Notes under the pieces: model-generated
Databases searched by the model: none
What the model saw: the letters and a program-made list of their open reading frames with translations, nothing else
What the model was told of the DNA's origin: nothing
From: Alphaproteobacteria bacterium
GTDB taxonomy: Bacteria; Pseudomonadota; Alphaproteobacteria; CALKHQ01
DNA: 64,000 nt
Reading direction: 5' to 3'
NCBI GenBank assembly: GCA_965227515.1
Contig: CBDDFZ010000001.1
Coordinates: forward strand, 3,968,001-4,032,000
Part shown: positions 48,391 to 52,664 of the stretch, piece by piece
How the letters are laid out: each line of letters begins with the position of its first letter
How positions within the stretch are numbered: position 1 is the stretch's first letter
Position numbers and translations under genes: made by a program

Positions 48391-48438
48391 CGGGCACGCG
48401 ATCTTCAATAATGCACTTCGTCGCCCTCGCGCTTGTCG

Positions 48439-48705
48439 CCAACACACAATCGTCATCCTCGCCCTTGTGGAGAGGATCCATTTATGTCCAAACTATCAAT
48501 GGTTTATGGGATTTGCACCGGCCGAGGGCGATCGACTGATTGTCAATGTGCCGCGCAGGCGATGCGCACACTAGGCTCGTTTCGAGACCTTGCCCATGAA
48601 TGGGTCCTCGCCACAAGGGCGAGGACGACAACTTCTTTTTTGTCTTAGCGCGTAGCCTGTTTGGAACGAAGTGGAACCCGGGTTTCGCTCCGCTCCACCC
48701 AGGCT
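48439..48705. repeat. 267-bp composite repeat, copy 1 (REPIN-like inverted-repeat element + GTAG-REP doublet), interrupted at its end by the IS
   Basis: Gap-free alignment to 50176-50442 with 9 mismatches by manual count. Confidence 0.9.
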
Positions 48706-48754
48706 TCTGTAACGGGCCATTGTTGGTCAATCCCTTTTTCGTCGTCCCGGCGCC

Positions 48755-48905
48755 TGGGTCATGCTTCTGTACGGGGTCGGCGCACGGCCGCCACCAAGAT
48801 GGATATGCGAGGATCGGTCGGTCCAATCTACGGAAGCGTGCTCTCGTGCGAGGCGACATCCTGGATGGCGGCCTGACCTGATCCATCGTCCCGGCGCGGG
48901 ACGGC
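48755..48905 (-). ncRNA. Putative bridge/seek RNA of the IS1111-type element
   Basis: 5' hairpin 48887-48903; loop closed by 48811-24/48870-84 carrying matches to the target; second loop carrying matches to the circle junction. Boundaries approximate. Confidence 0.65.
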
Positions 48906-48978
48906 GCTTGACGGGCCGGTGTCTGCGCCCGCCGAAGCTCGTGTGCTGGTTCTCCCTATGCGGCGGTCGTCTTTGCCA

Positions 48979-50022
48979 TTAGGCCGCTGCCATCGCCGGG
49001 CGCACCGGTCCGGCATGGTTGAACGCGGTGCCGTCAACCCACATCCGGTGCATGATCACGGCCAGCCGGCGCGCCAGCGCGACCTTCGCCTTCCTCATGC
49101 CGGCTCGCCTGGCCAGCTTCATCGCCCAGCTCTTCAACCACCCGCCCTTGATCGGCCGGGTCAGGATTACGTGCGCCGCCTCGTAAAGCGCTGCACGCAC
49201 GTCCGCATCGCCCACCTTCGAGATCCGCCCCGTCATCTCGCTCTCGCCCGACTGGCGCTTGGTCGGCGTCAGGCCGAAGTGCGCCCCCACCAGGCGCGAC
49301 GAGGCAAACCGCCCGGGGTCGTCCACTCCCGACAAGTAGGTCAGTCCGACAATGCTCCCCACGCCCGGCACCGTCATCAGCAGGCGAGCGCGATCGTCCG
49401 CCTGCGATGCCGCTCGGACCTGCCGGTCCAGCGCCGTGAACGATAGCAACAGGCCATCGCGTGCCGACAGCAGCGCCCCCGCCACCGCCTCCAGTACCGG
49501 ATGCCCCGCCACAAGCTCCGAAATACGTGTCGAAAAGCTGCGCCTGGTGGTGTGCCCTACCTTCAGCCCGAAGTTCCGCAGCTGACCACGAAGGTGCATC
49601 TCAAGATCGTGCAGCTTCGCGCGGAGCTGGTCGCGACCCTTCAAAAGGGCCCGCATCTCCTGGGCCGCCAAAGACTTGCAGTGAACCGGCCGAAACCAGC
49701 CCACACGCATCAGCTGAGCAATCCCGCGTGCGTCCGAGCGGTCCGACTTCACCGGCATCGTCGAAAGGGCTCGCGCAACATGACGCGTCTCCAGCAACTC
49801 AACCGAAAGACCGCCCTCGCTACATCCCCGCACAAGCCATTGCGACAACGGCCCCGCCTCAAGACCAATCCGCTCAACCGAAATCCCCAAAGACCCAAAC
49901 CACAACAACAAACCCGCCGGCGTGCTCGCAATACGAGCCTCGCAGACAATCCCGCCCGCGCCGTCAACAACGCACACCGATGACCATTCCAAAGAAACGT
50001 CAATCCCGGCATAGTAGTTCAT
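48979..50022 (-). CDS. IS110-family DEDD recombinase/transposase
   Basis: YAGIDVS, GLEAG, KSDRSDA (DEDD); LMTVPGVG, RQSG (catalytic Ser), GRISKVGD, VALARRL. RBS GAGGAGA. Confidence 0.95.
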   Translation of the reverse strand: MNYYAGIDVSLEWSSVCVVDGAGGIVCEARIASTPAGLLLWFGSLGISVERIGLEAGPLSQWLVRGCSEGGLSVELLETRHVARALSTMPVKSDRSDARGIAQLMRVGWFRPVHCKSLAAQEMRALLKGRDQLRAKLHDLEMHLRGQLRNFGLKVGHTTRRSFSTRISELVAGHPVLEAVAGALLSARDGLLLSFTALDRQVRAASQADDRARLLMTVPGVGSIVGLTYLSGVDDPGRFASSRLVGAHFGLTPTKRQSGESEMTGRISKVGDADVRAALYEAAHVILTRPIKGGWLKSWAMKLARRAGMRKAKVALARRLAVIMHRMWVDGTAFNHAGPVRPAMAAA

Positions 50023-50175
50023 GGTCGTCTCTCCTCGATGTCTTGGAGCGGCAAACCCGACTCCGTGTATGACACCGACATCTTGAGGGACGACCACTCA
50101 TGCACGCCACCAAACAAGGGCCGTTAGCCCATCTACGATGCCCAGCGCTTGTCGCCGCGAAATTCACACTTCTCA

Positions 50176-50442
50176 CCAACACACAATCGTCATCCTCGCC
50201 CTTGTGGCGAGGATCCATTTATGTCCAAAGTATCAATGGTTTAGGGGATTTGCACCGGCCGAGGGCGATCGACTGATTGTCAATGTGCCGCGCAGGCGAT
50301 GCGCACACTAGGCTCGTTTCGAGACCTTGCGCATGAATGGGTCCTCGCCACAAGGGCGAGGACGACAGCTTCTTTTTTGTCTTAGCGCGTAGCCTGGGCG
50401 GAACGAAGTGGAACCCGGGTTTCGCTACGCTCCACCCAGGCT
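50176..50442. repeat. 267-bp composite repeat, copy 2 (intact GTAG-REP doublet ending CCCAGGCTAC)
   Basis: Near-identical to 48439-48705. Confidence 0.9.
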
Positions 50443-50456
50443 ACGGTGCTGGTTTA

Positions 50457-50511: not shown

Positions 50512-52590
50512 CTACTGGCAGCTCAGGCATTCCTCGTAGTTGCGCGGCTCGACGGGATCGGCCTTTTCCGAGGGCGTGAGCGCGATGGTCTCCGCCCGCT
50601 CGGCGCGCTGCATCGACTTCGAGCGCAGGTAGTAGAGGCTCTTCACGCCCTTCTTCCAGGCCTGGAAGTGCAACTGGTGCAGGTCGCGCTTGTGGATGTC
50701 GGCCGGCAGGAAGATGTTCAGCGACTGCGACTGGCTGATATGCGGCTGGCGGTCGGCGGCATGCTCGATCAGCCACATCTGGTCGAGCTCGAAGGCGGTC
50801 TTGTAGACGTCCTTCTCGTGCTGGGTCAGGAAGTCCAGGTGCTGGACCGAGCCTTCGTTGGTGACGATGGACGACCACACCTCGTCGGTGTTCTGGCCCT
50901 TCTCCTCCAACAGCGCCTCAAGCGTCTTGTTGCGCACGCTGAACGAGCCCGACAGCGTCTTGTGGGTGTAGGCATTGGCCGCGATCGGCTCGATACCCGG
51001 CGAGGTGCCGCCGCAGATGATCGAGATCGAGGCGGTCGGCGCGATCGCCATCTTGTTGGAGAACCGCTCCTTGATGCCGTAGTCGGCGGCATCCGGGCAG
51101 GCGCCGCGCTCGTCCGCCAGCACTTCGGAGGCGGCGTCCACCTTGGTCTGGATGTTCTTGAAGATGCGCTTGTTCCACACCTGCGCCATCACCGATTCCA
51201 TCGGAATGTCGCGAGCCTGCAGGAAGCTGTGGAAGCCCATGACGCCGAGGCCGACCGAGCGCTCGCGCATGGCGGAGTACTTGGCGCGGCTCATGGAGTC
51301 GGCAGGCGCGTTATCGATGAAGTCCTGCAGCACGTTGTCCAGGAAGCGCATGACGTCCTCGACCATCGTCGGATGGTCGTGCCACTCGTCGTAGCGCTCC
51401 AGGTTCAGCGACGACAGGCAGCACACGGCGGTGCGCTGCTGCCCGTCCGGGTCCAGCCCGGTCGGCAGCGTGATCTCGCTGCACAGGTTCGACATTTTCA
51501 CCGGCATGCCGGCCAGCTTGTGATGCTCCGGGATCGCCCGGTTCACCGTGTCGCCGTAGATGATGTACGGCTCGCCGGTTTCGATCCGCGAGGTCAGGAT
51601 GCGGATCCAGATCGAGCGCGCCTTGATGGTGCGGATGATCGTGTTGTCCTTCGGGCTGACCAGCGCCCAGTCCTCGTCGTTCTCCACCGCGCGCATGAAC
51701 TCGTCGGTGATGACGACGCCATTGTGCAGGTTCAGCGCCTTGCGGTTGGGGTCGCCGCCGGTGGGCCGGCGGATTTCGACGAACTCCTCGATCTCGGGAT
51801 GGGAGATCGGCAGGTAGACGGCAGCCGAGCCGCGGCGCAGCGAACCCTGGCTGATCGCCAGCGTCAGCGAATCCATCACCCGGATGAACGGCACCACGCC
51901 GGAGGTCTTGCCGTTGCGGCCGACGGTCTCGCCGATGGAGCGCAGATTGCCCCAGTACGAGCCGATGCCGCCGCCGCGCGCCGCCAGCCAGACGTTCTCG
52001 TTCCACAGGTCGACGATGCCTTCCAGGCTGTCGGACGCCTCGTTCAGGAAGCACGAGATCGGCAGGCCGCGCTTGGTGCCGCCGTTCGACAGCACCGGCG
52101 TCGCCGGCATGAACCAGAGCTTGGAGATGTAGTCGTAGATGCGCTGGGCGTGCGCGCTGTCGTCGGCGAAGTGGGTGGCCACCCGCGCGAACAGGTCCTG
52201 GAAGCTCTCGCCCGGCATCAGGTAGCGGTCCTGCAAGGTCTCCTTGCCGAACACGGTCAGCAGGGCGTCGCGGCTTCGGTCCAGGCGCACACGGATGCCG
52301 CGCTCGTTCTGGAACACGTCCAGCACGGTCTCGTCGGCATGCGGTTCGCTCGCGGGGGTCTGAAAGTCCAGCACCTGACCATTCTCTTTCGACTGCGGGC
52401 CAGCGTCGACATCTGATTTGGCGACACCCGATTTGGCGGCCCTAGCTTCGCCATTCTTCAGCGACGCCCGTTCGCCCCCCGAACGGTACGGCACAGCACC
52501 ATTCTTCGCCACCTCGCCGTTTACACCCGGCGCCGCACCGGCTTCGTCACCGGATGCACGCGAATGCTGAACCGCAACCGCACCGTCCAT
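50512..52590 (-). CDS. nrdA: Class Ia ribonucleotide reductase alpha subunit
   Basis: ATPVLSN, PISCFL, SNLCSEI, APTAS, KSLYYLR, C-terminal CLSC. Start at ATG 52590 (GGAG RBS) preferred over TTG 52623. Confidence 0.95.
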   Translation of the reverse strand: MDGAVAVQHSRASGDEAGAAPGVNGEVAKNGAVPYRSGGERASLKNGEARAAKSGVAKSDVDAGPQSKENGQVLDFQTPASEPHADETVLDVFQNERGIRVRLDRSRDALLTVFGKETLQDRYLMPGESFQDLFARVATHFADDSAHAQRIYDYISKLWFMPATPVLSNGGTKRGLPISCFLNEASDSLEGIVDLWNENVWLAARGGGIGSYWGNLRSIGETVGRNGKTSGVVPFIRVMDSLTLAISQGSLRRGSAAVYLPISHPEIEEFVEIRRPTGGDPNRKALNLHNGVVITDEFMRAVENDEDWALVSPKDNTIIRTIKARSIWIRILTSRIETGEPYIIYGDTVNRAIPEHHKLAGMPVKMSNLCSEITLPTGLDPDGQQRTAVCCLSSLNLERYDEWHDHPTMVEDVMRFLDNVLQDFIDNAPADSMSRAKYSAMRERSVGLGVMGFHSFLQARDIPMESVMAQVWNKRIFKNIQTKVDAASEVLADERGACPDAADYGIKERFSNKMAIAPTASISIICGGTSPGIEPIAANAYTHKTLSGSFSVRNKTLEALLEEKGQNTDEVWSSIVTNEGSVQHLDFLTQHEKDVYKTAFELDQMWLIEHAADRQPHISQSQSLNIFLPADIHKRDLHQLHFQAWKKGVKSLYYLRSKSMQRAERAETIALTPSEKADPVEPRNYEECLSCQ

Positions 52591-52617
52591 ATCGATCTCC
52601 AGCCCCTGTCCCGAGGA

Positions 52618-52664
52618 CATCAAGATGTAGCGTCAAGAGACCAGAACGATACCAAATGTGGCGA
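52618..52664. promoter_or_regulatory. Tandem NrdR boxes upstream of nrdA
   Basis: Cores CAAGATGTAG (52621-30) and CCAAATGTGG (52652-61) match CwAtATaTwG and lie 31 bp apart. Confidence 0.75.

Follow-up and report, generated by a model that had tools for sequence, protein, structure and literature searches.

A predicted bispecific guide RNA in the 3' non-coding end of a REP-targeting IS1111-type insertion sequence from an alphaproteobacterium

Introduction

Can the non-coding end of an insertion sequence specify both the site that its recombinase enters and the ends that it joins? This question is raised by a locus in a 64,000-nt stretch of an alphaproteobacterial genome (contig CBDDFZ010000001.1, GCA_965227515.1), referred to below as the window. 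Here an IS1111-type element of the IS110 family occupies a repetitive extragenic palindrome (REP), and short pieces of its 3' non-coding region match the target and the element's own joined ends. The element and the RNA are read on the minus strand, and coordinate pairs in the text descend in that direction. Our analysis indicates that this region is very probably the bridge RNA, or long seekRNA, of the REP-targeting element, with expression and activity predicted from the sequence.

RNA-guided recombinases from the IS110 group and from the IS1111 group are under development as programmable DNA insertion tools. Table 1 of a 2026 review contains few orthologues, only a handful of which are IS1111-type. 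Durrant et al. (PMC11208160) have predicted a bridge RNA in 93% of the IS1111 elements of ISfinder, in the right end. Siddiquee et al. have shown that RNAs of 82–96 nt and 148–172 nt from the 3' non-coding region co-purify with four IS1111 transposases, including that of the REP-targeting ISPa11 (PMC11187229 sections 8, 9 and 12; PMC13604230 Table 1). Within IS1111 seekRNAs, the segment that matches the top strand stands on the 5' side of the one that matches the bottom strand (PMC11187229 section 9).

Results

The element, its ends and its target

Searching the window's own genome (5.5 Mb, two contigs) with BLAST revealed 20 full-length copies of the element, with 93–100% identity, and one further copy with an internal deletion. 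The element is 1,429 nt long, counting one AG core as its own. The immediate context common to all 20 copies reads ..GTAG / ATGGGCTAACGG ... GTTACAGA / AG CC(T/C)GG(G/A)TG, in which slashes mark the junctions, and the outer flanks are unrelated to one another. On the basis of these copies, the target is ..(C)GT-AG-CCYGGRTGG and the circle junction is ..TTACAGA-AG-ATGGGC.., in agreement with what a first, sequence-only reading of the window had deduced. A single AG is shared per copy, between ..GTAG and AGCCYGG.. (20/20), and uninterrupted sites read GTAG-CCYGG. Insertion is site-specific, and no target duplication extends beyond the 2-nt core, as expected of the IS110 family. GTAG precedes every copy, with C at -3 in 15/20. 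The natural target is a GTAG-flanked REP, as had been proposed, and the genome contains 123 uninterrupted GTAG-CCNGGNTGN sites.

Proposed guide segments for the target and for the joined ends

Four segments of the 3' non-coding region correspond to these sequences (Table 1). On the minus strand we find CCAGG (48864-48860), CCGUAG (48833-48828), CCAUCUU (48802-48796) and UACAGAAG (48771-48764) exactly where they had been reported, together with an 8-nt motif, ACCCAGGC (48759-48752), and a hairpin-capable stretch (48903-48887). The first of these segments is longer than had been thought. Because of the covariation between guide and target and of the pairing with the site, the 5' target guide comprises 9 nt (CCAUCCAGG, 48868-48860) and not the 5 nt of CCAGG. 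The second pair of segments matches the joined ends of the element. As had been noted earlier, both pairs use the same order around the shared core; in each, the top-strand match stands 5' of the bottom-strand match. This order and the size of the RNA fit IS1111 seekRNAs, whose long forms measure 148–172 nt. The decodable guide set covers about 15 target positions.

As a control for chance, the 273-nt region was shuffled 20,000 times with its dinucleotides preserved. The four guide motifs occurred together in none of these shuffles, and at least three motifs in five; CCAGG by itself is expected 0.7 times per 273 nt. Across both strands of the 5.5-Mb genome, the ordered four-motif pattern is found 20 times, which as a count equals that of the element copies. 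That the matches are chance or DNA-level protein-binding sites with no functional RNA, or that the RNA comes from the opposite strand, is hardly credible: individual matches are indeed short, and a search of sequencing runs found no RNA run that contains the region, but the shuffles, the guide/target covariation in two independent data sets (below), the compensatory and G:U changes of the fold, which would be A:C on the other strand, and the matches of the RNA model, confined to the recombinase strand, speak against it.

Covariation within the genome

Two sublineages are present among the 20 copies, seven carrying CCAUCCAGG and thirteen CCAUCCGGG at the 5' target guide. The copies with CCAUCCAGG (CCAGG) adjoin CCTGG sites in 7/7 cases. 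Those with CCAUCCGGG (CCGGG) lie in CCCGG sites in 11 of 13 cases, and the remaining two lie in CCTGG, where a G:T wobble is possible. The guide base is associated with the target base (Fisher p=4.6e-4 for the 20 copies). Occupied sites also differ from empty ones in the direction of the guide. For the CCGGG type, the perfectly complementary CCCGGAT is found in 9/13 occupied against 23/123 empty sites (p about 1e-4), and for the CCAGG type, T stands at position 3 in 7/7 against 36/123 (p=1.8e-4).

Between the subfamilies, the RNA core shows 4 substitutions in 159 nt, one of which is the guide base, and the 76-nt spacer between gene and RNA shows 8 substitutions and a 9-nt indel. The subfamily-distinguishing positions seen in contigs are 48862, 48846, 48793 and 48785. 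Among the contigs of four DNA sequencing runs, run X1 yields a collapsed 1,438-nt element contig that covers 48699-50136. The element contig of run X2 carries the subfamily-B letters at all four positions (4/4), and that of run X3 carries three of the four, keeping the window's letter at 48846. The form with G in the guide therefore occurs outside this assembly too. The contigs of the four runs include the collapsed element contig and subfamily-B variants only, with no empty-site joint at the locus, and no circle-junction joint there, though such contigs cannot show circles.

The deleted copy lies outside the window (G000:C1:998355-999181). Its deletion joins position ~711 to ~1310. It retains the last 122 nt of the element with part of the RNA, which the covariance model described below matches with 52 bits.

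Covariation across related elements

Scanning one genome of each species with the protein as seed yielded 75 related loci (numbered with the prefix L), mostly alphaproteobacterial, with 37–69% amino acid identity over the best matching segment; the nearest relatives found have 68–69%. The element's DNA was not detected in the 40 other relatives' genomes searched, which leaves no cross-species copies to compare. The elements whose ends could be set by simple rules (28; see below) occupy many different targets, and each has, at a constant spacing from its right end, a stretch that complements its own right flank. Examples are AAUCCGCCC for ggcggatt, CAUGCGGG for cccgcatg, GCAUGUCCGCU for AG-cggacatgc, CAAACCUUCU for AG-aaggtttg and UCGAUCCCUG for cAG-ggatcga.

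We evaluated this relation with loop columns taken from a model-based alignment and right ends set by an independent rule. After 15 of the 65 hits were dropped for want of a resolvable end and duplicates were collapsed, 37 guide/flank combinations remained. The 11-nt loop complements the core and right flank over at least 7 nt in 21/37 cognate pairs, compared with 13/1,302 non-cognate pairs, and several of the lower cognate values reflect single mismatches or wobbles. On the second loop strand, the guide for the left flank matches at least 3 nt beyond the core in 14/24 cognate and 7/522 non-cognate pairs. Both within the genome and across relatives, therefore, the earlier expectation that guide and target covary holds for the target segments.

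The donor segments follow the element ends. We sought subterminal repeats in 50 full-length loci and found them in 30, and simple rules set the ends in 28, L033 and L047 being dropped from that set. The 5' donor guide tracks the left end (ACCCCAUC with ATGGGG, ACACCAUC with ATGGTG, GGCAU with ATGCC, CCCAA with CTTGGG). The 3' donor guide matches the right end and core over at least 7 nt in 29/30 elements and tracks the right-end types ACAGA, AGAGA and AGCGA (ACAGAAG, AGAGAAG, AGCGAAG).

Two copies in one metagenome-assembled genome, L032 and L033, display a one-base switch, CAAUCCGCCC standing with ggcggatt and CAACCCGCCC with ggcgggtt. The natural guide/target switches suggest that the RNA may be reprogrammable, as the sequence-only reading had supposed.

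We looked for handshake guides beside the core-facing ends of the loops and found no consistent pattern among the relatives and nothing like IS621. We also asked whether CCCCGU, which precedes the 3' donor guide, matches the left flank in the manner of a handshake guide, and rejected this, since CCACGG or CCCCGU stands there regardless of the left flank of the relatives.

Two relatives show peculiarities of their own. In L037 (2298-2462), the loop reads CAUCAUGCUCC, and the right flank, agcggttt at the end based on the subterminal repeats, is the same as that of L035, whose guide matches it. In L044, the RNA and right end are tandemly duplicated (2292-2463 and 2545-2716; two model hits 253 nt apart). 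After the first 'right end' comes non-coding sequence of the element itself instead of a target, which recalls the modular ends reported for ISPpu9.

A conserved predicted fold in which the guides are unpaired

The fold is based on RNAalifold of 17 diverse sequences and on explicit pair counts. Four helices are supported, namely P1, P2, the distal hairpin of the target arm and P3. Overall, 86.8% of cells are paired, compared with 36–47% when partners are slid by 1–3 columns, and 17/30 pairs change on both sides; none of 500 shuffles reached the observed pairing and both-sided-change values. In 52 distinct model hits, 94.4% of cells are paired and 25/27 pairs change on both sides, in an alignment that was fitted to the model and so favours the structure. 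The sense-strand fold has z = -3.0. In 6/7 relatives, the unconstrained minimum free energy (MFE) fold contains the long-range closing helix and the target-arm stem.

P1 spans 13 bp in the window copy. Its inner 7 pairs are 86.6% paired with 4/7 changed on both sides in alignment A2, and 95.4% paired with 7/7 in alignment A3, whereas its outer part is seen sequence by sequence. Compensatory examples in P1 are CUGCCGGG/CCCGGCAG, CUCGCGGG/CCCGUGAG and UCACCUGG/CCAGGUGA. P2 is 89.1% paired with 7/13 both-sided changes (A2), and 92.9% with 12/13 in the model hits; it is essentially the bulged stem (48884-48870/48824-48811) that had been drawn before, now 48884-48869/48825-48811. P3 is 100% paired with 4/5 both-sided changes (A2), and 99.6% with 5/5 in the model hits.

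The '5' hairpin' of the earlier reading (48903-48887) can form, but its bases serve mainly as the 5' strand of P1. We do not retain it as part of the conserved fold; it is formable in many relatives, but in some, such as L089, L068 and L053, the long-range helix alone is possible. Similarly, the 8-nt target match ACCCAGGC is real as a sequence, but we reject it as a third target guide and assign it to a conserved helix, as part of P1's 3' strand. Subfamily B keeps it although the target there has changed; among the relatives, GACCCAGG occurs in L069 and L070, whose targets are unrelated; and its partner in P1 is CGCCGGG (48896-48890), with compensatory changes across relatives.

None of the four guides is paired in the covariance-supported fold. 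The two target guides lie opposite each other in an internal loop, whose 5' side always measures 11 nt, and P3 has a donor guide on either side. As predicted, the consensus structure places the guides in loops, although the MFE fold of the single copy pairs two of them.

A covariance model, R1, built from the alignment of the 17 sequences, matches 63/75 related loci, always downstream of the gene and on the recombinase strand, which carries all 65 hits. At least seven of the 12 loci left unmatched are truncated matches. In its own genome, R1 finds the 20/20 copies and the broken one, and no orphan copies. Many pairs are G:U (GU in 42/52 at one pair of P2). These pairs and the U:G and G:T wobbles of the guides fit only the recombinase strand, which places the RNA there.

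The recombinase and the group of the element

The 347-residue product matches PF01548 (DEDD_Tnp_IS110) at residues 5–150 (9.6e-13, 48.6 bits, cutoff 29) and PF02371 (Transposase_20) at residues 212–287 (1.1e-19, 71 bits, cutoff 21.3). Sequence matches in the PDB are the ISCro4 transposase (9t56, E=5.6e-11) and the IS621 transposase (8wt6, E=1.1e-9). The translation shows the D of YAGIDVS, the E of LEAGP and the D..D of KSDRSDAR, and the D and D..D were aligned to ISCro4. From these matches, the protein is predicted to have the N-terminal DEDD/RuvC-like and C-terminal Tnp domains of the IS110 family. The open reading frame is open in 20/20 copies, at 345–347 residues.

IS1111 transposases have 330–350 residues and a GL-P----S(T)G motif (PMC11187229 section 6), and the length and the GLTPTKRQSG of this protein would place it among them. 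Subterminal inverted repeats of about 7–17 bp, set in from the ends, are among the features that define the group (PMC11208160; PMC11187229 section 6). Such repeats are present here, imperfect, with 78% complementarity over 18 nt (50126-50109 against 48727-48710). Subterminal repeats of the TAACGG/TAATCGG type also occur in the 30/50 relatives noted above. The long non-coding region of the group lies downstream of the gene, 273 nt (48978-48706) in this element, with only 110 nt upstream.

A putative promoter at the circle junction

We found no sigma-70-like promoter inside the linear element. After circularisation, TTGACC would be followed by 17 nt and then by GAAGAT across the joint, and TTGAC is conserved at the same place of the right end in most relatives. 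Junction promoters have been described for this family (PMC11187229 section 8; PMC12288879). The RNA would probably be transcribed from such a promoter.

Surroundings of the element

The element is flanked by two direct copies (95%) of a 284-nt unit, at 48427-48710 and 50164-50447. The unit consists of a REP and a segment with GTCGTCCTCGCCCTTGTGGCGAGGA-type hairpins, and its upstream copy holds an unoccupied target site. Elsewhere in the genome there are about 8 diverged copies (~70–76%, ~190–215 nt) and many fragments. The unit looks like a composite repeat of the REP/MITE (miniature inverted-repeat transposable element) kind. Upstream of the repeat units, a 703-residue open reading frame (50512-52623, minus strand) encodes what looks, from its translation, like the large subunit of a class I ribonucleotide reductase.

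Table 1. Features of the element, its predicted RNA and its target sites in the window
Feature	Position	Strand	Remarks
Whole insertion sequence	48704..50134	-	Boundaries shared by 20 genomic copies; flanks unrelated beyond the target
Left core; body; right core	50134-50133; 50132-48706; 48705-48704	-	AG at both junctions
Left subterminal inverted repeat	50109..50126	-	18 nt, 6 nt inside the left end
Recombinase gene	48979..50022	-	347 aa; DEDD/RuvC-like N-terminal and Tnp C-terminal domain with GLTPTKRQSG (predicted)
Spacer, stop codon to RNA core	48903..48978	-	76 nt, poorly conserved
Predicted bridge RNA core	48744..48902	-	~159 nt, delimited by P1
P1 5' strand (GUCCCGCGCCGGG)	48890..48902	-	Overlaps the earlier '5' hairpin'
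P2 5' strand	48869..48884	-	Closes the target-binding loop; pair counts
5' target guide CCAUCCAGG	48860..48868	-	Complements top strand of right half-site CCTGG(G/A)TGG; A48862 is G in the second subfamily
Distal hairpin of target arm	48838..48857	-	Length and sequence vary in relatives; outer G-C and U-A pairs conserved
3' target guide CCGUAG	48828..48833	-	Same sense as left flank and core; pairs bottom strand CTACGG
P2 3' strand	48811..48825	-	Pair counts, folds
5' donor guide CCAUCUU	48796..48802	-	Complements circle junction A-AG-ATGG, made up of the final base of the right end, the core and the initial four bases of the left end
P3, distal hairpin of donor part	48775..48792	-	Pair counts
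3' donor guide UACAGAAG	48764..48771	-	Same sense as right end and core
P1 3' strand (CCCAGGCGCCGGGAC)	48744..48758	-	Holds ACCCAGGC minus its first base
TTGACC, likely -35 box of junction promoter	48725..48730	-	Read from the sequence; putative function
Right subterminal inverted repeat	48710..48727	-	18 nt, 4 nt inside the right end
Right half of occupied target, CCTGGGTGG	48695..48703	-	5' arm of the REP hairpin
Left half of occupied target	50135..50137	-	CGT, then core AG
Uninterrupted target copy CCGT-AG-CCTGGGTGG	50432..50446	-	~300 nt upstream, same orientation; one of the 123 sites

Discussion

A model for the guide RNA

The sequence-only reading proposed a bispecific guide RNA with a target-binding and a donor-binding part, and the covariation in the genome and among relatives, together with guides that are unpaired in the supported fold, upholds it. 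The analysis shows the anatomy of the element and the fold, as well as the complementarities and how they covary with targets and ends. By analogy with characterised relatives, we infer transcription and processing of the RNA, its binding to the recombinase, and catalysis. With 20 intact copies, the element is apparently active.

In the proposed mechanism, the RNA from about 48902 to 48744 would fold as a Y. P1 would close it, the target arm would consist of P2, the internal loop and the distal hairpin, and the donor part would be arranged around P3. At the right half-site CCYGGRTGG, CCAUCCAGG would pair with the top strand, and at the left half-site and core, CCGUAG would pair with the bottom strand. 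CCAUCUU and UACAGAAG would likewise pair with both strands where the element's ends are joined. In complex with this RNA, the recombinase may then carry out strand exchange at the AG core common to both DNAs (CT on the plus strand of the window), by which the circular element would be inserted at the foot of the REP hairpin without target duplication.

Several observations weigh against this assignment. Over its 9 nt, the guide of the window copy forms eight Watson-Crick pairs with its own site and needs a U:G wobble for the ninth, and opposite the core G the loop has a mismatched base. The left guide is short, and within the genome specificity beyond GTAG is inseparable from the REP consensus. 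In some relatives (L037, L034, L069) the guide does not match the flank, which possibly reflects mobilisation in trans by the RNA of a sister copy or decay of the guide. A proximal stem closing the donor loop (P1b) is unsupported, with 52.9% pairing. The MFE fold of the window copy (-75.6 kcal/mol) keeps P1 and pairs the 5' target guide with the region of the 5' donor guide, and the consensus-constrained fold (-69.5) is 6 kcal/mol weaker. A search of Rfam gave no match, only five sub-threshold hits to unrelated families, the best with 20.6 bits against a gathering score of 330. R1 also has no match in a distant IS4321 locus, where its best score is 6.2 bits. Since no Rfam family matches and R1 misses IS4321, the kinship to the tested seekRNAs is one of architecture and not of RNA sequence.

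Alternative explanations

In a narrower role, as in a seekRNA taken strictly, the RNA would guide only the choice of target, the protein would read the ends through the subterminal repeats, and the donor matches would be by-products of shared ancestry. We consider this improbable. It draws on the predominant short seekRNAs (82–96 nt) that co-purify with IS1111 transposases and carry the target matches (PMC11187229 sections 8-9). In addition, the likeness of the 3' donor segment to the right end covers a longer stretch, apart from one absent base (CCCCGU-ACAGAAG against CCCGTTACAGAAG), which is what duplication of an end would produce, and the 5' donor match is short (4–5 nt) in several relatives. 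However, both donor segments change with the ends, on the left (ATGGGG/ATGGTG/ATGCC/CTTGGG) and on the right (ACAGA/AGAGA/AGCGA), and they are held at fixed places beside a conserved hairpin. Durrant et al. (PMC11208160) also report donor-complementary loops in IS1111 elements.

The MFE fold of the window copy raises another alternative. If this fold were the true ground state, it would sequester guides, and the RNA might be auto-inhibitory or switching, mostly inactive until the protein remodels it. The energy of the single-sequence fold, 6 kcal/mol better than the consensus type, speaks for it, as does the complementarity, which is kept in both subfamilies. Nevertheless, the pairing is absent from the consensus of the 17 relatives and from the MFE folds of the 7 relatives tested, and it stems from a fortuitous resemblance of the left end (ATGG..) to the target half-site (..GGATGG). 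That 20 copies are intact also argues for an active element. We regard such a ground state as very unlikely, even more so than a role in target choice only.

Returning to the bispecific guide RNA, we tentatively raise the possibility, itself somewhat doubtful, that the architecture of this alphaproteobacterial clade differs mechanistically from that of IS621 and of the tested IS1111 seekRNAs. The RNA may be a closed three-way junction with a long P1 tying its ends, its donor guides may sit in junction strands beside a hairpin and not in a stem-closed loop of their own, and its target loop may have a fixed 11-nt 5' side. If this is true, the two sublineages would be a natural case of single-base reprogramming, in which position 3 of the half-site is read strictly and U:G and G:T wobbles are tolerated.

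Comparison with known systems

ISPa11 of Pseudomonas aeruginosa (PMC11187229) resembles the present element by description. Both are IS1111-type, insert at a fixed point in a REP of the host and have the RNA downstream of the transposase gene. Both place the top-strand match 5', and the long RNA of ISPa11 measures 172 nt, compared with the ~159 nt predicted here (PMC13604230 Table 1). The host class, the REP and the target differ. The RNA of ISPa11 has been shown to co-purify with its transposase, whereas binding of the present one is predicted.

With the ISEc11/IS4321-IS5075 group and the ISEc11 seekRNA, the element shares subterminal repeats, the 3' non-coding region, the logic of a junction promoter (putative here) and the GL-P----S/TG motif. 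The recombinase has ~25% amino acid identity to an IS4321-family transposase, and R1 stays at the low score given above for the IS4321 locus.

The bridge RNA of IS621 (Durrant et al. 2024, Hiraizumi et al. 2024) is likewise bispecific, with separate target and donor parts and a REP target. In both parts, a pair of guides reads opposite strands on the two sides of a 2-nt core, CT on one strand as in the present element, and the recombinases are detectably homologous, as the match to 8wt6 indicates. Unlike the RNA described here, that of IS621 lies upstream of the gene, with the reversed order of guides in each loop (PMC11187229 abstract and section 12). IS621 has at most the short subterminal repeat pattern of 2–3 bp that is reported for the ends of the IS110 group (PMC11208160), compared with 18 nt here. 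A long helix closes the whole RNA in the present element, no proximal stem of the donor loop was found, and we recognised no positions like the handshake guides described for IS621 (PMC11208158).

As PMC12288879 describes them, ISPpu9 and ISPpu10 of Pseudomonas putida are also multi-copy and REP-targeting, and recombination takes place at an invariant AG at both ends. They belong to the IS110 group, are without terminal inverted repeats and have the bridge RNA upstream of tnp; ISPpu9 is reported there to have a strong native promoter and accessory small RNAs.

Significance

The element does not reveal a new mechanism. It adds a well-supported member to a known kind, whose mechanism was first reported in 2024. 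As an orthologue, it offers 20 intact copies, decodable guides and an RNA model that recovers 63/75 loci. Two natural one-base guide/target switches, between subfamilies A and B and between L032 and L033, give testable rules of specificity and wobble. For annotation, the 3' non-coding end of such elements should count as an RNA gene. For the biology of these genomes, the locus indicates that REP subtypes can be divided between sublineages of one insertion sequence.

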